In this document: positions 37,882-51,438 of the stretch, one piece after another
Numbering within the stretch: position 1 is the first letter of the stretch
Layout: every line of letters starts with the position of its first letter
Assembly (NCBI GenBank): GCA_026023565.1
Contig: JAPETS010000027.1
Span: 248,001-312,000, forward strand
Direction: 5' to 3'
DNA length: 64,000 nucleotides
Source: Cirrosporium novae-zelandiae
Lineage: Eukaryota
The notes under the pieces: model-generated
Databases searched by the model: none
What the model was told of the DNA's origin: nothing
Seen by the model: only the letters and a program-made list of their open reading frames with translations
Translations under genes and position numbers: made by a program

Positions 37882-40800
37882 ATGGCAGCAAAGAACCAAG
37901 GATTTATAGTAAGCTCCTTGTGGAGTTTTAAACCTGAAGCGGTAAGTCTTCTTACATACGCTACTGGAATTCAATAAGTTAAAAGAGCAATAGGAACGTC
38001 AAGTCCTGAATGAGTTCAGCACCTATTCTCAGAATGGGATAGCTAATTTTTCGTACAACCAAAACTCTGATTGCTTCATTGTCGAGAATTGTCAGGCCAA
38101 CGACGAAAGGCCACTGGATGCTCTCCTAAGCACGGTAGCATCGTTCATCAAAAGGGAGAGAGACGGAGGTAATGATCCTAAGGTGTGCAGTGATTTGTCC
38201 CTATCGATTCTATCTTCGGCTACTAGGAGTCCCGATTAACCTATATGGGTTCATAGAATGTAAAGATTGAGAGAGTTGACAAGGAAGTTAATCAACATCT
38301 CCAGCTAAGTCTAGGATTTCAGCTTAATAAACTTGATAACCTTGTACACAATCCAAATGGTGCTCCAGAAAACCAAGAGCTCGGGTCAGTTTCAGCGGGT
38401 GAGAACCAGAGCCAACAATTCTCACTAGCCCTTCCCCAATTTAGAAGGACGTGGCAAGCCAGTAGAGAGTTTCACGAGATCTTTCCACAATTCACACAGG
38501 CATACCTAACATCCATTGGCGGACAGACCAACTCTGAACTTTCAGTTGACGAACCGCAATTTCAGATCGGAATACAAGGACACCAGGAGAATGATGTCGA
38601 GGAGGCTTTGAAAAGATTACAGAACCTGGCCTGGACCTTTGTAAGTATAAGACTCAACTTCCTGTTTTATTGCTAACTTTGAAGCAGTTTACGGCCTTCC
38701 ATCCAATGTCAAAGCACCTTCTCGACGTCGATGCCAAGATCACCAGGAAGATTGGACTATATTTTACCACGCTCCAGGAGGAGGGTGAAAGGACACTGAG
38801 AGGTACCCTCCTCCCTGACACGCACATCGACCTGAAGGACAGCATTCATAAAATGAAAATGACCCGACTTTCTCTATTCAACCCAGTAGTCAATAAGTAC
38901 GAACGGATTCTACTTGATATTCACCCTCTCCATAACAAAAGTTCAAGCGAAGTGGCACAGCAAGTTTTCAATGGTTGGCGCTGGGCTGAGATTGGTGACG
39001 AGACTCTTGACCCTGGAGTACTTAAAAATACGTCGGTATATTTGTTCGAAGAAAGCCAATATGGGCAGAATATGACGAATTTTGGGAGAAAAAATATTCT
39101 GGACTGGGTTGGTAATACAGAAGAGCCAGAAGAGCCTGAAAGAAAGATGAGCACAACGTCTAGCCTTAGCTATACGGGGGTGATCGCCGTCAGTCCTCTC
39201 GATCAAGTTGGAGTGGTTGAAACGCCTGCACAAGAACCTCCTCATAGAATAAGACCAGGAAAGAGGCGCATAAAGAAGGGAGGTGATACAAAACCGTCTC
39301 ATCTGCAGACAAAAAGTGAATTGACTAAGCAGAAAACATCTTCAGAACCAGACTCGGTAAATTTGAAAATTTCACTTCAACGGTCAGATGGCGCTGTTAC
39401 AAATGATTTAGTATCACTCATAGGGGCAGGAAGTTCTACCTCTCACTCTGTCAACATTCCAAGAGTGATAGATGAAAATAATGACAAGGAAACTTTCAAA
39501 GAAGATGAAGGTACAACTGGTGGCCCACATGTCCAATTTCCTCTGGACCTCGACTTCTTCGAGAAGCGATTAGAAACCAGTCAAGCAACTGCGAGAAAGG
39601 GCATTGCCGGTGATCATACCACTCAAAGCCTGGAGCAGCGCAAGGAAAATTACGAGACTAAATACGAAGGAGCGCTGATTCCAATAGGTGTCCCTCCACC
39701 CTCAACTACCGGTGTTTCTGAATCCTCGAAAAGTGTATCCGCAAGAAATTCAGTATGGGAGTCTGAGCATTCGTTTACTCCACGATACTATTCTTATCAA
39801 GATAGCCTTGCTCGGGATCAGCAGAATAGCTGGGCTAACCAGTCAGTTCACCTTGACCACCAGCATGGCTCAGGGACATTAGTAGAAATAGGCGCCGGTA
39901 GGCCCCAGAAGATAGGGCAGAAGGCTAGGAGCGGTCCTCGTAGTGAGAAACAGCTTATCAACAACTTAGCTTTCAGGCGTTCAAATCAAACCCAGCAACC
40001 ACAATCTCAACAAAATATCATAGGCCAGAATTTTATCAAGTCAGTGAAGGAAAATGACAAATCCAAGGAAACGAGACTACAGCCACTTATAGACCTGCGT
40101 CCTCCACTACCACCCACTCCCTGGAAACCAGTCAATCCGAACTTGAGAGGAGATCTTACTGATCTTTCTGAATATCCTGCTCTGCCTATCCCCACACCTG
40201 CTCAACCCCAGACACGACCTTCTTCATCTATCTCGACTCTTCGCATCACCGATGAAACAAAAACGCGAAATTTTAAAAAGACGATGGGGCAACAGTCGCC
40301 TCCACCTATGGATATTGAAATATTCGACAATCATGTTCTTGGTGATAAAAGTCCCGTAGGTTTTGAAGGGAAGGACCAGAAGTACACTGGAAATCTCCTC
40401 GAAATAGCTCGCCGTTGCGCTGGTCAAATCAGGTTGAACGTCCAGATCGGGCGCATAGTGATTCCTCGTTTAGCACATACGGAGCATGACCAATACGATA
40501 TCGCAGAATGGCACAAAATCTTTGACAATTCTCATGGGGCCCAGCCACCAGATATCCATTTCTTACCGGCGCTAACTTCTTCTGGTCAAGATGTTGACTT
40601 CATAACATTGCTCAAGTTAGACGATGGTAAACCAATGTTTAAAAGTATTCGTGAATACGACGTCATTTATTGCTTTAAATGCAAGACTCCTGAAGGAACG
40701 ATTATGGAAATTGAAATTGCAGAGCCCCCTGAAGCTGAAGATACTGATGAACCTAGTGAAAAACCTAGGTACACTGTCTCCCAGCCCATTACCATGGGTA

Positions 40801-41435
40801 CTATCAGCCGTCATTTCCCACGGCATTCTTGGGATGCAGCGATGACTTTAAAGTGCTATGATTTGAATGCTAGATTAGACCGTTTCAGTCAACCTGCCAA
40901 GGAGCTGGCCGACCACCTTCGAGTTCCACCAGGTAAGGAAAATGTTGAACTTTCAACTAAAAACTCATTCCTGGACCTCAGAGTCGAGAGTGTTTTAGTC
41001 CGCCGCCGCTGTTCGTATGAACATCATCAGCATAGTGATATCATACTGAATATCACTGAAGTCCAAGTACTTAATGTTCAAAGGCTCGAGGAAAATCAAG
41101 CTATTCTTCGGGCAATATCTTGTAACATTCCAACGATGATTAGAGATCACGATCGCTGGTACGAGGTTTCGCTAACTTCGCAATTCATTGACGAGGTGTT
41201 TGATGAGAACATGGAGCTTGGTATAGGAGAGATCGCCTCTTGGACTCCGGATATGATACTTAATAATACTGAACAAAGTGTTCCGTCGTTATGGAGTGTT
41301 ACTAGAACGCTCGTTCATGCAATCGATAACGTTGGCTTTCACAACAAGGGGCCAAGCACAGCCCCTCCTCTGGGAAACAAATTGCAGATCTGGTCAAAGG
41401 AACACCACGGATACACAACCCCTTACTTCTGGTGA
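37882..41435 (+). CDS. Large uncharacterised protein (about 1126 aa, 4 exons); possible degenerate KH-like segment and a folded C-terminal domain
   Basis: Exons 37882-37941, 37994-38182, 38257-38640 and 38688-41435 join in frame through three phase-0 GT-AG introns with no internal stops. Confidence 0.8.
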
Positions 41436-42160
41436 ATTTCAAGCTTGTCTGGGCAGGAAGGTATGTACGATCCTAACAATGGGAGCGCAATATAATTCTG
41501 TAAATAGCAGATTTAAGATAGCTAGCTAATATTTTCAGCTTACCATAGGAGAATTCTTCTTCAAGCTTGTCTAGTCAACACGCACACTCAATCTTTGTGG
41601 ATCCTCCTAAGATACTTCCAACCCTTATGAGGCGATCTGCCAACCTAAAATATTTCTTTCGTCTAATGCACTCTGCCTTTTTTATCCTTCTTATGTGGTT
41701 CCCTTCTACTCAAGTTTCAACTGTACTTTCATTCAAGCGATTCAGCATCCGCTATCTGTACCTTCTGCTACACTCTCAGATATGCCCCTCGAGCGTGTTG
41801 AAAGCTGCTGTTTGCACATTAAGAATTCTAGATAGATTCTGTTGCAATGCAAATGTTCAATAGGTTAATGCTTGGGTATTCCAATGCGTAGTTGATATCC
41901 ATAAATTAGTTACCAGATTACTCAATTGGGCGGGGTAACGTAGTCAATACCATGGAGACAAGAACCTAAAACAGCCATGTGTAACAACAAGAAATTTTCC
42001 AAGGCAATGAAATACAACAGCAGTTAAAAGTCCATAGTTGATTCAGACAGTATAATCCCATAGAATTTAATGTTTTATTGATACTCATTCTGCGCCACAA
42101 AACGCCCTTAGCAGTTCGTAGGTCCTTAGGTCCAATAAATACGATATATCGAAGGCATTC

Positions 42161-42960
42161 TTATTTCTTGGACTTTTTGCCCTTATTGCTCTTTCGACTT
42201 TTCAGTCCGTTTTCTGCCTTAAGCGTCTCTAGTGTCGCGGAATTTAGAGGGGCCTCAGATTCTTGAGCAGTCGGGTCTATGAAACCAGCTGGCGCCTCGC
42301 TCTTCTTAGCTGCCCTAGAAGGATCGGCTTTTCCTATAACAGGTACAGAAGATGCCAACCAATTTCTCAATGCCTCCTCCACAAATTCCCCATCCTGGGT
42401 GAACCATTGGGTAAAACTACCCTCATACGTCTTCTCCTGCAGCGGGGCGCCGTCATTCTTCCCCCAACTGACTGTCAGATAATATATTGGCTTATTCTTC
42501 TTCGCTTCCGTCCGAATTGCAATTTTATTGCCTCCCTTGGTCCCAACAAAAACCGTTCCCTTCTCAATGAAGTAAATCCATGCTGTCAGTAAGGTGTTGA
42601 GAATGAAGTACACAATGACCGTATAGAAAGTGTAATGTTTTGTGGCCTCGAAGCCGAGCTTGTAGTCATAGTAGAAAGTGATAGCGGCGATGGTGACGGC
42701 GGTGTAGCCTAAGGCCAGGCGAATGTCGGTGAGGTAGTAAGAGGGAACGAATGCGAGGCCGCCCGTAGAGGGGTGAGAGGAGAGGTAGAGGGGAAGGTGG
42801 TCATCTGTTGTATTTTTGAGGTCTATAGAGGAGATAGTTAGCTTGGCCATAATGGGGGTAGGGCAATAGCGGCCCTAGTTAGAGTAGCAGAGAGCCCCAG
42901 AGGAGATAAGAGAACATAGATACCGGGGAGAGAGTATTTGTTAATCTTAGCCGTCGCCAT
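42161..42960 (-). CDS. SPC2: Signal peptidase complex subunit 2 (Spc2/SPC25), 2 exons
   Basis: MATAKINKYSLP|DLKNTTDDHLPLYL (intron 42823-42923); LTDIRLALGY, two TM helices, FTQWFTQDGEF; KK-rich C-terminus. Confidence 0.9.
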
Positions 42961-43541
42961 GGTTAGAACGGGCTCCCTATTCAGAATCTGACTAAAGAAA
43001 ATTAAAGAACTGTGAGACTAGTAATTCTTCCTAGATAGGGCTAATGGAAAGGAGGAAGCAGTGAACGAATCCTCAAAGATTCTTTGTAGACGTTAAGTTT
43101 TGAATCGTGTTAAACTGGTAAACTGGCCTCAGAGGATATTATGGATAGGGTTACACAATCGATAGGGCCGATCGAAACTAGAATTTTTTAGGTTAGAAAC
43201 AGCCCTAACCCAAGAGTCAATGTGAACTTCATCTCAAATGCTTAGATCTACATGTTTCGACCTATGGTATCAAACTAGTATCTCTTTTGTTTTTTCTTTC
43301 TCTCCATCTATTGTCCTTTCTTGCTTGTTTCATCAGGTCAATGATACCCGCAGAGTTACAGGTTGAATTTACTCAATCGTGTACAACCGTCGTTCTCAAA
43401 TATTTCTTTTAGCCGTTAACTTCTTGATACATTGTCATAACCGCTAAATATCATTTCATTCCACCTATTCGAACTTTGTTTTACTACCCAAAAACCTATT
43501 GACACGGTTTCCTATATTCATCTTTCTTCGCTTGGGCTGTC

Positions 43542-44399
43542 ATGGGGAACACGGATGCCATAATTTCAATACCATCTCTTCTTGCAACACTTAAAATTGT
43601 CCCTTTAAGCCACCAGAAATCCATAGGTACAACTGTGGGAGGCAAGAGCTGTCACCAGCGGTTAGCCAAATCTACCCAAGATAAGGCCCGAGAGCATATG
43701 GTAAACTTATCAGAGTATGATCCCTCAATGACGAAGTTTGGATATGAGCTCAGCCACCTAGCCGGCTCACTGCTATGCCAGCAAAACCATCAAGACCAGA
43801 AAACCCTGATTTTCAACCGTTGGTTAGCATTGGTACAGACTTTTATGCAGGAAACCCAACTTCCGATCCTAGCCAGGTCATCCAAGATTCAGGAGCCTAG
43901 GATAATCAAATCTTGCACTCTTCTTAAGCAAGACCTACAGCACGAGTTCGTGAAATATTGTGCTGCAAGGTTGAATATAAGGTTAAATAAACTCACGGGA
44001 AACTTTCTCGCCGCTATCATTGATACAGGGGCTAGGGTGTCTGTCATAGACCTAGATGTTCTGAAGAAAATTGCTCCCGAAATGGATATAAAGCAACTAG
44101 GAACTCCAACAATGACGAAGGGCGTCGGCTTAGGGTCGGCCTATACTCTGACAGCATGTGCTCTCCTGGACATATATGTCCCAGGGTTTATGAACGCTAA
44201 TCCATCACGGCCTGTTATGGCTAAAATTTCCCGATGGGTATTAGTTATGGATAATCGAGGAACAGACATGGTTATTGGTGTAGATATAATGGACCCAGAG
44301 AAAATGGTTCCAGATATTTCTACCAAGATACTCAGAATTAGAAGCTGCCAGGGCATAATAGCACCGTTGACAATAACGTGGGAAAATAGTATATCTTGA
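43542..44399 (+). CDS. Cys/His-motif N-terminal domain fused to a retrotransposon-type (Ty3/Gypsy-like) aspartic protease
   Basis: Intact 285-aa ORF; AIIDTGARVSVID (catalytic Asp codon 44022-44024), flap-like KGVG, and DMVIGVDIM; N-terminal GTTVGGKSC...LSHLAGSLLCQQNHQDQ...RW. Confidence 0.75.
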   Translation: MGNTDAIISIPSLLATLKIVPLSHQKSIGTTVGGKSCHQRLAKSTQDKAREHMVNLSEYDPSMTKFGYELSHLAGSLLCQQNHQDQKTLIFNRWLALVQTFMQETQLPILARSSKIQEPRIIKSCTLLKQDLQHEFVKYCAARLNIRLNKLTGNFLAAIIDTGARVSVIDLDVLKKIAPEMDIKQLGTPTMTKGVGLGSAYTLTACALLDIYVPGFMNANPSRPVMAKISRWVLVMDNRGTDMVIGVDIMDPEKMVPDISTKILRIRSCQGIIAPLTITWENSIS

Positions 44400-44810
44400 C
44401 TCTTCTAACTTGCTTCTTTCGCGATACTGTCGGACATAATAAAGCATTATAGTATTAGCCATTACCTTCGTTGGTGTAACCAAATGCTTGGAATTACCAC
44501 TCTATGCAGGTCGTATTTTGGAAGCATCAATGGCGGCGATTGGAGGATGGATGCAAAGGTCGTTTAAAGGGCGATGTTTGGGGCTAGGGAAGAATGCTCT
44601 TGAGCATTTTGTCGAGGGCAGATTGGGCAACAGAGAAAGACGGAAACTTCCAATAGAGTAAATAGATCATCTATGATAGTTTAATCGAAGGTTATGTTAT
44701 GATACAGATTATATATAGTTACATTCCATATTCATTTTCTTTTCACAATTGCAAAATATACAGTCCATCTTATTAGCTATTTGGTGTCAATGCTTTCGAC
44801 AAAGAGAAAC

Positions 44811-44896
44811 GAACGTGGTCTTGAAGAGGTCTTCAAACAAGGCTAGTTTTTAATAAAAAAAACAATTTTGTTTGAAGGCCTCTTTAAGGTCACTTC
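44811..44896 (+). repeat. Inverted repeat/hairpin with 26-bp arms
   Basis: gtggtcttgaagaggtcttcaaacaa (44815-44840) pairs with ttgtttgaaggcctctttaaggtcac (44868-44893): 22 Watson-Crick and 4 G.T pairs. Confidence 0.85.
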
Positions 44897-45107
44897 CAAT
44901 CTACCTTTCGAAAGGGAGGAGAGGATGGCGAAGAAATCTGGGGCTTTGTTCTCCGCATCTGCTCTCTCAAACCCCGAGAAACCGAGAAGCTTGGCCAACT
45001 CTAATTTTACAGTATCCGATACGTTTATCAAAAAAACCTCCGCCAAAACCACCACCAACACCCACAGTTATCGCTCTACGACTAGTTGCATATAAACCTT
45101 AGCAACC

Positions 45108-46381
45108 ATGGCCCAAGAAGCTATGAGTGAGCAGTCGATCCATCGGGATCCAGCGCTTTTGTATGTGAAATTCTCCCAATCATTAGCAAAAACCACTGTA
45201 GATAGCTAGATCTCCCCCCCGTCCTACTGTACAAAAAGTGACCATTAGCTGACTTGAGAAATGCAAACCTAGCTACTGGATCCTGATTCCGATTACGGTA
45301 GTTATGGTATATATTCACTCCCCCCCCTCCACCATTCCCAACCAATCCCAAACCAACCCTCACCCCCCGCTAGATCCTCACAGGCATCCTCCGACATTAC
45401 ATAACCGTCCTATTATCTCCCAAACCCAAACCTCAGCCCCTACCCGCCCTGCGCGAGCAGCGGTCCCTCCTACGGGGGACGTATCTCCGCAACAACAGCC
45501 CCGCGATCACGACAACGTCCTTCACCTCCCGCCGCAACTACATGGTGAACGCCTACAAGAACGGGGCGTTTCTGAAAAACCCAGAGAGCAGGGGACAGCC
45601 GCCCGCGAACCCGATGACGGATCCTGCAGGCATGGAGCAGATGATGGGTATGATGAAGGGGAATATGGCCATGATGGTGCCGCAGAGTTTGATCATGGGG
45701 TGGATTAATGCGTTTTTTTCTGGGTTTGTCGTTAGTATGTTTTTGGTCTCTTTTTCTTCTTCTTATGATATATATTTCTACTGCTCATTACGCTTCCCCC
45801 TCACCCTTAAAGCAACTTGGAAGGGAGGGGGGGCTCTCTAAGTTAGTTGGGAGTGGTAATGAGATGGAAGAGCTAACATCAAGCGACACCTAGTGAAACT
45901 CCCCTTCCCATTAACGATTCGATTCAAAAGCATGCTCCAATCCGGCGTCGCTACACGAGACCTAGATGTCCGATGGGTATCTTCTCTCTCCTGGTATTTC
46001 CTATGCCTATTCGGATTACAATCCGTATTCATATTCCTCCTCGGAAATGATAATGGTACGTTTTTTTCTTTTCTTTTCTTCTTCTCTCTCCTCCTCTTTC
46101 TCCAGCTTATTGTTCAATTAACTTCCCAAACTGGTTTTTTCTTTCCTTTTCACTATCCTTCGTATATATCCCTTTTAAAAGCTAACATTGAAAAACAAGC
46201 GGCATCGCAAATGTCTCAACAGATGGCGCAAATGAATCCGGGGGCACAGGCTGGAAACATGTTCGGTCCGGGTCAGGATCCGGATAAGATGTTTAAAGCC
46301 GAGGCCGAGAACCTGGAGGTCCTGGATCATTGGTGTGTACTTGAAGGTGTAGAGGATAGGCTTTTAACCAGTATGGCATGA
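45108..46381 (+). CDS. EMC3: ER membrane protein complex subunit 3 (5 exons)
   Basis: EQSIHRDPALF|YWILIPITVVM|ILTGILRHY; PPANPMTDPAGMEQMMGMMKGN; MGWINAFFSGFV; KLPFPLTIRFKSMLQSGV; WVSSLSWYFL; FKAEAENLEV. Confidence 0.95.
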
Positions 46382-46844
46382 AATTTTTTCCTGGGTTGAG
46401 AAAGGGGGGAAAAGGCAAGGCTGTTCACGCATTACTCGGCCACTCGCAAAGCTCTCTCTCCGGAGGCTGTCATACGAGTTGGTTGCGACTTGAACAAACA
46501 TTTTGAGGTCTGGGCGCGTTTAGATTTGATTTATAGAGGCAAGCTCTGCCAGGTAGATATTCAAATGATATAAAAAACGCCTATACCATCCATACCGGTA
46601 GCCACTGTGTATGCACACCCAAATCCATGTCCATATCCAATTACATTCCTAAAACCCCCATAGTCCGTTGTTCGTATTTCACATATCTAGCAAGATCCCG
46701 AATCTTCTTCTCTTCCCTTTCAGCTAAAGTCCCACATATCTTAGTTTTCTGAAAACTACTCCTTTGCTTCTATGATAGTCGATATATGACTTCTAGAGTA
46801 TGTCTGTCTTCGTGGATATGGGAGGGAGACACCGGTGAAGGGGA

Positions 46845-48578: not shown

Positions 48579-51438
48579 CTATCTTAAATGCCTCATCGCA
48601 AAGTTCTCTGTCTGACTTCTCCGCATGGCTCTAGGTTCCCACTGCGGCAACTCTTCGTTCGTATCCGACCTCACGGCCTGAGATCCTATAGTGCCCCTTC
48701 TGTCATCTAATCTCTGATCTGCCGAGTTTCTAACACCCTGCTCCATCAAGTCCTGGTCTTCACCGGCGTTCCCGACACTATTTCCTCGCATACGATTTAT
48801 GAAACGGTTATGGTGTGTATCCTTGGATGCACCGCTTCGGGCGGCTGATGCGGTGGAGGTACGGCGGAGGGAGAATCGGCCATGGGAGGAAGAAGATAGT
48901 CTAGCACCAGTTGCTACTGCACTGGCTTCATCCTCTTCTCTGATTGTAGCTTCACGTTCTCGGGAACGGGACGATGACTGATCACGAACTAATTTGGCCA
49001 TTCGTTCCGAAGTACTCTTACGATCTTCATAGATATCGCTTATAGGGTCGCCAGAAGAAACAGAGCTCATACCAAGAGAAAAGTCGACACGTTTAGCCAT
49101 TGTGGATAGAGACTCGCCACGCTTGCGAGAACTGCGAAGAATTGAAGGGTGCTGGTTGGCTACAGAGGATGTGTTTTGCGGATCGTGTGAACCATCGGCG
49201 GAATTCTGAGGTTGAGTGCCCGCAGGATAGTTGACAAAGAATGGTTGTTCTTGTTTCTGGCCAGGATACCGCATACGTGGACCTTCAATGCCGAGTTCTT
49301 GCATGGAGACCATCATTGCGCAGAGGAACTTGTTGCGGCGCTGAAGACGGAGAAGTTCATTTTGCCAATTGGATTTGTAGAAGAAGACAACGTTAAGAGT
49401 GATCGAGTGAGCTTCAGTGACTGCACGAAGCTCGGTCAAGATGTTGCTTTGATATTCACGCTTCTCCGAGATGACGAATTCCAAAAGGCGTTGACGAAGA
49501 GCATCAATTTGTTCGAGAGAGGTTCCAAATTTGATGATGATGGGAATTGCTTCTGCCAATCCACCAGAACGGCGCATGTTAAGAATGAAAAGAGTGTTAA
49601 GCTCGCTGTTCGGGGCTTGTACGACATGACCTTCCATCTTCTTGAATTCCGTATACAAGAGAGCGATTTCCTTGACAAAGTAATCGTCACCAGTCAATGT
49701 GCTTCCGGTATTCCCATAGATGGAGACTCTGTCACCAACATCAAACGGATGCTTCACAAATACGAAGATGATCGATTGTAAGAATTCCTGGGCAGTAGCA
49801 GAGAGAAGCCAGGAAAGAGCGAGGACAGTAGAGCCAGCAGACGTAAGGACTCCTGCGGCGGATGCAGACACCAAAGAAAGGAAGACAACCAGAGTGATGA
49901 TAACCACAACAAAAAATAAAACATCGTCAAACTTGGCAACGACCGAATCTAAATCTTTGAGTGAAGCAGTAATGGACTTGCGTTCACGACCAATTTCAAC
50001 ACAAACAGCTTCAAGTTCCTCCATAGAGATATCACCATTCATATCTTTGTCGAACATGGTAAATGCAGCATCAGCTTCATCGTCGTTGTCAAAGGCGCTT
50101 TTCAAGTCCCCGGAAAAGACGGTGTCGAAGCCATCTCGGACAAAGGTACGATAGAGACGTCGAGCTAGGACTTGGCTGCCAGAAGTGGTATGAAGGAGTG
50201 TTAGGACCACTTGATGGGGATGTGTACTCTTGGCCACTTTCCTTCCAGTGAAATCTCCAGCAATTTTGCCAGCAACATCACCAACCTTGTGGAGGACCTC
50301 CTTTGTGGCCCTTTGCGCATTTTGTGCCAACACTCCAGGAGTTCGCATTCCGGATCTTGGCCGGCTTTCATCGTGCTCCTCGAACTCAGAATCGTCCATA
50401 GCAATGCGCTCCTTTGAAAACTTATACAACTTTGCCAAACTCCCAATCTGAAATTTGTTGACCTCAATGCGATCTGCATACGTTCGGAGATGAAAGCTAA
50501 TGGCAATGAGTTGGATGATAATTTTCTCGATAAAGTTGAGAATGCACCCGACGAAAATAGCCACAAGGACCTTGTTCATGGTCCTTTCCCACTCTTTAGT
50601 TCTCTTGTCGCTATCAATATGGTGGTTTGTCATGGTTGGCAAAAAGGAAATCTCTACTCCGAGCCACCAGAAGAAAATGGTAGCTGGAACTTCGAGTTGC
50701 TTGCCCAAATCTCGCCATTTCTTTTCGTTGTTGGTAAAGAGACTTGCAACTACTCCTAGAGGCCATGGGATCATTTTAGCAGCAATCTGTAAATACTGTC
50801 AGCTTCTTATTTCATTAAATGATTAAATTCTAATAACTTACTCTTCCTCCCCATAAGGTGAGCCAGACAATTTCAAGCCATATACTGAACCAGAGGAGCC
50901 TGACGCCACCAACACTAGATTCCTTGAATAATAATGCTCCAAGTAACAGTGGGATAAGGAGAATGGCGAAGATTGGTACAATATATGTGAAATATCTGAT
51001 CAAGAAACTAGATTGATGGACTTTTTTGAAGAACTTGGCAGCACTGCTGGATGGATTCTCAGGTGGTCTATAAAGGGCTGTTCTCTCATGAAGAGGATTT
51101 GTAGCGATATCGAACTCATCGACAGGCTCGGTGTGGCGAGACCTCGACCGAAACATAGAGGCCCCTTCCTTATCCTTTTCAGATTCTGTATTAGAAACAA
51201 CCCGCTCAGCTTGGAGCATAGCCAGTTCATCATCCAGTCGGCTCTCCTTCTCTCTGGTCGCGGAAGGTGATGGCTGGACCTTGTCATGAAAATCGGTTTC
51301 ATGAGATATTTCCACCCTTAGATGGCTATGTTCATTGTCTCCGGCACTTCCAATAACGGTTCCATCTTCATCTGAGGATCTAGAGTTGGAGGTGTTGGGA
51401 TAGTGAGGTTCAGGGATTTCGTACACTGGGGTTGTCAT
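48579..51438 (-). CDS. MscS-like mechanosensitive channel with EF-hand (Msy1/Msy2/MscA type), 2 exons
   Basis: [20 protein letters not shown]-hand [42 protein letters not shown]; intron 50787-50841. Confidence 0.93.

Follow-up and report, generated by a model that had tools for sequence, protein, structure and literature searches.

A Cirrosporium novae-zelandiae open reading frame that joins an unnamed Ascomycota helical module to a Ty3/Gypsy-type retropepsin domain, a probable domesticated protease gene

The window, by which we mean the whole 64-kb stretch of Cirrosporium novae-zelandiae DNA that was analyzed, contains at 43542..44399 on the + strand an intact chimeric open reading frame, here called P0001, that begins with ATG, encodes 285 aa and has no stop codon in its translation. 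On one side lies SPC2 (42161..42960, - strand; Pfam SPC25, E 2e-52; start at 42960 inferred from sequence), and on the other lies EMC3 (45109..46381, + strand; Pfam EMC3_TMCO1, E 1e-9 and 3e-11), which has several exons and an approximate start. The ORF translation and these Pfam matches bear out the original prediction of an intact 285-aa frame between the two genes. SPC2 and P0001 are arranged head-to-head, with 581 bp separating their starts if that of SPC2 is correctly inferred. The further neighbors, a DUF7905 gene (38706-41435, +) and a gene for an MscS-type mechanosensitive channel with an EF-hand (48579-50774, -), are ordinary. The locus lies within one unbroken contig of even depth, which probably derives from the same source data.

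Protein and DNA searches both find the P0001 locus once in the genome, which settles the copy-number check that the original prediction had proposed. Among proteins of 156-499 aa in a 90% cluster set, the sole match is M1834_004412, the model that NCBI gives for the P0001 locus, which is 351 aa long because it adds a predicted 64-nt intron (44389..44452, +) and a 3′ exon; this 3′ extension matches none of the transposon flank profiles. The codon-usage score of P0001 (-0.009) is below those of all 13 host ORFs (0.003-0.049), and wrong frames reach 0.055, so the score does not discriminate. A sigma-70 scan near P0001 was at chance level and is not meaningful for a fungus. Whole-protein AlphaFold from the single sequence gave a pLDDT of 32.6, an Atlas search with the whole protein returned only retropepsin-like clusters, all below threshold (0.76), and no transmembrane-like segment was found in P0001 (maximum hydropathy 1.45).

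The C-terminal part of P0001, aa 114-282, which begins at the IIKS strand and ends with the PLTIT strand (43881..44387, +), was recognized as a Ty3/Gypsy-type retropepsin domain by sequence and profile search and by a dimer model. It carries the catalytic D161-T162-G163 (44022..44030, +), an ILG-type second motif at I245-G246-V247-D248 (44274..44285, +; alignment) and, in the alignment, the flap glycines G194-V-G196 at the template position, where the template positions for second motif and flap are those given in the available part of PMC2642776. P0001 thus has the catalytic motif, the second motif, the flap and the homology to solved retropepsins by which single-domain (clan AA) retropepsins are recognized in sequence. 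All of the motif residues quoted in the original prediction are in place (D161-T162-G163, G246 and D248 here, and Ser27, C37, C79 and H83 in the N-terminal half). Its call of a C-terminal Gypsy-type retropepsin stands, with the correction that the transposon-derived part begins near aa 114-122, at the IIKS strand, and not at aa ~160.

A search of 1.84 billion representatives returned 133 hits, namely the P0001 locus itself, 129 proteins matching only the C-terminal part and three matching only the N-terminal part. The two domains occur together in none of the 132 other hits, and hence an orthologue was not found in this set. Cirrosporium novae-zelandiae is placed in the Xylobotryomycetes, which the available part of PMC6712537 describes as an isolated lineage, and for this reason absent orthologues tell little about the age of P0001. 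The best E value among the 129 protease-domain relatives is 3.7e-12, and RVT_1 was found in 13 of the 64 that were scanned, several of them also having RNase H, integrase or Chromo matches (two list a Chromo domain). Because these hits carry reverse transcriptase, the source of the protease is a fungal Ty3/Gypsy polyprotein, as originally proposed. On sequence and profile evidence, residues ~114-282 of P0001 are the domain that serves as protease in Ty3/Gypsy polyproteins of the Pezizomycotina. The protease of the chromodomain-bearing elements is homologous to aa 114-282 and has the DTG motif, flap glycines and IGxD motif in common with it; P0001 differs in having no Gag finger, post-protease domain, reverse transcriptase, RNase H, integrase or LTR and a host N-terminal module instead, in its altered FRxxxY and RExHxVxxLxA motifs and in its identity of at most 35%.

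The domain is a diverged member of its family. Identity to the 116 near-full relatives does not exceed 35%, and by nearest-neighbor distance P0001 ranks third of 117. The D-[TS]-G motif is kept in 96 of the 116 relatives. P0001 keeps 29 of 47 strongly conserved columns (62%, against a family median of 79%, with 18 of the 116 members lower), and its non-conservative changes at conserved columns are E232W, H234L, L239R and V192T. On a protease profile built from 49 training rows, four of them stand-alone proteins, P0001 scores 120 bits and ranks 61 of 68 held-out sequences, all of the hits having been chosen by their likeness to P0001. Four Pfam retropepsin families match P0001, all under the cut-off (E 0.015-0.13), and the single sequence found no retropepsin match among solved structures, while the family profile found DDI1 as its best solved-structure match (E 1.2e-5), a result that also bears on the predicted retropepsin origin. 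Ddi1/Ddi2 (PF09668) belong to the same protease clan. P0001 was rejected as a Ddi1 orthologue, as it scores 15.9 on PF09668, for which the cut-off is 26, and neither a ubiquitin-like nor a UBA match was found in it; a separate, full PF09668 match of 173 bits lies elsewhere in the genome, on contig C46, and is 22% identical to P0001.

Retropepsins act as homodimers, with one Asp contributed by each chain. When aa 114-285 were modeled as two copies, the score was 0.73 and that of the best control 0.00, with contact agreement between runs of at least 89% and pLDDT of at least 76, and in the modeled homodimer D161 contacts D161′ and T162 contacts T162′. The homodimer modeling suggested in the original prediction gives a dimer with the Asp dyad, with a score that may merely reflect similar dimers already solved. 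Since such dimers are already solved, we take the model as likeness and not as binding. In calibration on microbes, 21 of 30 solved pairs reached the dimer mark and none of 23 single chains did so; on eukaryotes the counts were 17 of 29 and 0 of 30. Where no older solved relative existed, only one of seven reached it.

The N-terminal part of P0001, aa 1-105 (43542..43856, +), is an unnamed Ascomycota helical module with a C-C-C-H pattern, identified by alignment, profile and an AF2 model. It scores 74.2 bits on a profile of nine other members, which themselves score 48.7-90.0, whereas shuffles reach at most 8.2, and it starts at the usual start position of the module family in the alignment. 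These results support the original prediction of a helical C-C-C-H module in which Ser takes the first Cys position. The sample is ten alignment rows, two pairs of which are near-twins. In P0001, Ser27 (TCC) replaces the first Cys, which is Cys in all nine other rows, and C37, C79, H83, Q84, Q86 and W94 are kept, so the profile homology is joined by the conserved G, C, C-x3-HQxQ and W of the family. The substitution is one base away from a Cys codon, and only three of four putative metal ligands are kept; His24, common to P0001 and three relatives, is a possible substitute ligand. The C-x9/10-C...C-x3-H pattern suggests a metal site. The AF2 model from the ten rows (pLDDT 85.6, pTM 0.79) has four helices and a small hairpin region. 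A Foldseek search of PDB and BFVD with this model found nothing at E<=0.001, and the VIA best match (Z 5.4, rmsd 4.1, 96 aligned) is in the usual range for helical bundles and gives no evidence for a new fold. Neither Pfam nor NCBIfam has a model for the module. A short linker of about aa 106-113 (43857..43880, +), between the end of the module match and the start of the protease profile at aa 114, marks the host/transposon junction and is a candidate self-cleavage region.

Other proteins with the C-C-C-H module have different partners. In relatives the module is followed by a low-complexity stretch and then by one of two partners: a RING-like domain in P0101, L002, L003 and L036, or a T5orf172/MUG113 domain, recognized by Pfam in L037 and L046 and by likeness to L046 in L031-L035. 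By structure, the module homologue P0113 resembles RING-CH-type, RINGv and T5orf172 clusters (TM 0.60-0.75). P0001 differs from these Ascomycota proteins in having the protease as partner, Ser for the first Cys and no long low-complexity linker. The same genome holds three further module genes. One of them, L046 (G000:C99:19919-20839), is a native gene of module plus T5orf172, and because it is native, RING-like, T5orf172 and protease partners all occur in one species. The other two, L002 (G000:C90) and L003 (G000:C121), are module plus RING-like genes within a 2-kb duplication of 91% identity that has no RIP signature, though resident retroelements are strongly RIP-damaged; L003 also contains a 433-bp inverted repeat, and an ORF upstream in it is presumably kinase-like. 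For P0130, no longer relatives of aa 1-100 were found among 60 candidates, which is weak evidence.

P0001 does not look like an ordinary transposon remnant. When the 16 long hits were compared with the 64-kb window by tblastn, none gave a reverse transcriptase, RNase H or integrase match, and 14 of the 16 were significant, all inside 43773-44387. No LTR-like direct repeat was found within 41400-46500. Profiles of the domains that precede and follow the protease found nothing at 42900-45300 of the window and detected decayed resident copies at up to 59 bits. These three results uphold the prediction of a protease with no linked pol or LTR. The frame of P0001 stops three residues past the protease domain and is trimmed to it. 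Intactness, single copy and loss of the mobility domains, which are the marks of domestication that can be read from one genome, are all found in P0001. An intact Ty3/Gypsy element was excluded, there being no Gag, reverse transcriptase, RNase H, integrase, LTR or multiple copies.

The genome does carry resident Ty3/Gypsy elements of the same clade as the P0001 protease. A Gypsy protease query found eight places in the genome, of which seven have stops and only P0001 is open. The proteases of four resident copies are 17-30% identical to P0001 and occupy other parts of the tree. Contigs C35 and C47, which are matched at identical coordinates, look like duplicates in the assembly. Four stretches from two resident elements have RIP composite indices of +0.38 to +0.70, and the RIP-type copies show low GC together with depletion of CpA/TpG, while two other retroelement stretches are not RIP-like (L010, -0.22; L026, -0.05). 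The index of P0001 is -0.53, compared with -0.17 to -0.80 for three host genes, and P0001 retains 15 CAA/CAG codons and three TGG codons. With the frame intact and no RIP-type damage in P0001, an ordinary RIP-decayed remnant was excluded. The available part of PMC10799480 states that RIP requires duplicated sequence. We expect that RIP would also spare a lone diverged copy that lacks a similar partner, a point against the selected-gene reading given below. As a separate observation, near a contig end (L010/L020, G000:C3:378-2639) there is an open Gypsy-like pol frame of 1080 codons without stops or RIP signature, unlike the other copies.

P0001 is not the only protein in which this protease type stands behind a non-transposon N-terminus. 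A transposon flank domain is present in 100 of the 130 proteins that bear the protease. The other 30, which have none, are P0001, 19 short fragments, P0041, P0091 and eight proteins of what we call the 'ARWLFW' family (P0048, P0049, P0050, P0078, P0087, P0092, P0107 and P0126). The 'ARWLFW' proteins have in common an unnamed helical N-domain, for which Pfam and NCBIfam have no model, followed by the same protease type, and they end 3-59 aa past the protease; the catalytic triad is intact in seven of the eight. Named members come from Meristemomyces frigidus (two, with consecutive locus tags) and Oleoguttula mirabilis. In P0126, a weak C2H2 finger remains between N-domain and protease. P0041 (Candelina mexicana M1836_002321) has the protease behind a non-transposon N-terminus and ends 8 aa past the domain, and P0091 (Xylographa trunciseda) has a non-transposon N-terminus but no triad and could represent a fused gene model. 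Like P0001, the 'ARWLFW' proteins combine a non-transposon N-domain with the same protease type, to which P0001 has a weak tree affinity; unlike it, they have an unrelated N-domain and are known here as protein sequences. Because relatives exist, this family is a stronger domestication candidate than P0001. From the existence of the family and the weak affinity of P0001 to it, we conclude that stand-alone proteases of this lineage appear to recur, through either one old capture followed by domain swaps or several captures.

The P0001 protease could have come from the older domesticated 'ARWLFW' family by a swap of N-domains, an origin that is compatible with our preferred reading below and that we rate somewhat short of an even prospect. 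On a profile of the stand-alone family P0001 scores 119.8 bits, above all 93 transposon-flanked members (maximum 119.2), and its preference for this profile is +12 bits where held-out transposon members average -62 and reach at most +0.6, although 'ARWLFW' members themselves favor their own profile by 14-72 bits, mostly by more than 40. A maximum-likelihood tree of 31 sequences, in which 20 of the 93 transposon members were included, unites the P0001 protease with the family (SH-aLRT 85.3 / UFboot 68) as the best of 57 placements, but 16 of the 57 are not rejected and six of these are on branches outside the family. Several departures of P0001 from the transposon consensus are common to the family. 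An identical signal would arise from long-branch attraction, or if residues specific to polyproteins had been lost convergently. The ARWLFW helical N-domain is absent from P0001, whose own N-module is unrelated to it (hhalign probability 0.3%), and there is no other member of the family in the genome.

We propose that P0001 is probably a functional, lineage-restricted host gene whose product is a domesticated aspartic protease that acts as a homodimer and has an N-terminal adaptor domain. In favor of this reading are the sole open frame among the eight protease places and its lack of a RIP signature, the trimming to the protease domain, the distance from every sampled relative, the family-like score and confident fold of the N-module, the dimer model as far as likeness goes, and the eight stand-alone proteins of like design. 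Against it are the lack of an orthologue among the hits, Ser for the first Cys, the low retention of conserved protease columns and the low rank on the protease profile. That P0001 is a selected protein-coding gene appears likely, and if it is under selection, its protease is very likely active. The detailed adaptor model is tentative, and we hold it with some doubt. By domain shuffling, the usual C-terminal partner of the C-C-C-H module (RING-like or T5orf172) would have been exchanged for a Ty3/Gypsy protease domain. The product would be soluble and intracellular, and two chains would pair through the protease domain to form the D161/D161′ site. The N-module would serve as an adaptor for targeting or sensing and probably binds metal. 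It would direct the protease onto its target, a protein or nucleoprotein of the host, or alternatively it may restrain the protease until a cut is made in the linker at aa 100-120. The specificity would have shifted away from polyprotein sites. Self-cleavage in the short linker, by analogy with ASPRV1, is possible.

An unlikely alternative to a selected host gene is that a Gypsy fragment from an unsampled and now lost lineage inserted in frame into a dispensable C-C-C-H paralogue, and that the chimera is under no selection, open by chance and decaying. The C27S change at one base from a Cys codon would suit such decay, as would a retention of conserved protease columns below the family median, the lack of an orthologue among the database hits and the presence of three other module paralogues in the genome. 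In a neutral simulation the whole P0001 frame stayed open in 27% of runs at 4% amino acid change, in 3.9% at 11% and in 0.15% at 20%, for an assumed indel rate; an open frame by chance is thus plausible at small divergence, whereas the frame would seldom survive more than 10-20% change, which favors selection given the distance of P0001 from its sampled relatives. Against chance insertion, P0001 is trimmed at both domain borders, the genome is without a close donor element, core residues are kept in both domains, and several departures from the transposon consensus are common to the stand-alone family. The argument from divergence fails if the donor element simply went unsampled.

We consider it very unlikely that P0001 is kept as a restriction factor against Gypsy elements, acting by heterodimer poisoning of their protease or by premature cutting of Gag-Pol. 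The dimer surface is intact in the model, by likeness to solved dimers, and elements of the same clade are present to be targeted; however, every same-clade protease found in the genome is broken and shares just 17-30% identity with P0001, and a pure poison would have no need of the intact catalytic motifs.

Returning to a domesticated host protease, P0001 would be a case of a known kind of co-option, of the ASPRV1/PEG10 type, and the suggestion in the original prediction of a new gene type was overstated, with co-opted Metaviridae proteases known in mammals (from the available part of PMC11402058) and other stand-alone fusions among our hits. According to that part of the same paper, ASPRV1 is a homodimer activated by self-cleavage. 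ASPRV1/SASPase and PEG10 are likewise host genes in which a retropepsin of retrotransposon origin follows an N-terminal region, as far as the available sources describe them. P0001 differs in being fungal and of independent origin, in having a host module and not a Gag-like region at its N-terminus, and in having no transmembrane-like segment; it is known here from its sequence, its activity and conservation being putative, and its profile match to ASPRV1 is weak (E 2.1).

In fungi, the available part of PMC8778642 raises domestication of retropepsins only as plausible. A kingdom-wide fusion screen (PMC10799480, available part) counted 296 and 232 candidate fungal fusions that include a protease domain of retroviral type, so the category has been published. 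In the first 32 of its 201 PF13650 supplement entries the protease is joined either to UBA or ubiquitin-like domains or to others that include zf-CCHC, zf-H2C2 and integrase, and we read these 32 as Ddi1 or unmasked polyproteins; of the 316 PF13975 entries, two were covered. As described in that part of the paper, the screen required Pfam hits on both halves and occurrence in several genomes, and P0001 has neither. We found no description of the module-protease fusion, the C-C-C-H module or the ARWLFW family in a literature coverage that leaves out most subscription papers and all bioRxiv supplements.

Judged from its sequence features, P0001 is real, well-formed and probably functional, and other fungi seem to have similar tamed proteases with different front ends. 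If confirmed, it would be a fungal counterpart to ASPRV1 and a co-option within a genome that has active RIP, and it would open the C-C-C-H module and the ARWLFW proteases, two unstudied families, to a simple self-cleavage assay. A broader reading, which is speculative and on balance rather unlikely, is that a group of host retropepsins from one Gypsy lineage exists undescribed in filamentous ascomycetes, plugged into different helical adaptor modules, and that the C-C-C-H module acts in sensing or targeting and can be wired to three chemistries (a RING-type ligase, a T5orf172 nuclease-like domain and an aspartic protease), as in a modular genome-defense or signaling system.

It is highly improbable that P0001 is cargo or a component of an unrecognized mobile element, given that it is single copy at the DNA and protein levels, has no matching terminal repeat upstream and has housekeeping genes for neighbors, even with a dispersed palindromic element 415 bp downstream and two module paralogues within a 2-kb duplicated segment of 91% identity; an assembly chimera, graded no higher, was rejected on the unbroken contig of even depth that spans the locus (probably the same source data). 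The palindromic element (44815..44893, no strand assigned; repeat search) is short, MITE-like and probably unrelated to P0001. No target-site duplication or parent element was found for its family, and no second copy lies upstream of P0001. The genome has 120 occurrences of its 16-base arm at one mismatch or fewer, compared with one occurrence for a control, and the copies (L054-L063) are often inverted pairs spanning 55-173 bp. The copy in the window, at 44815-44893, has a hairpin z-score of -6.4.
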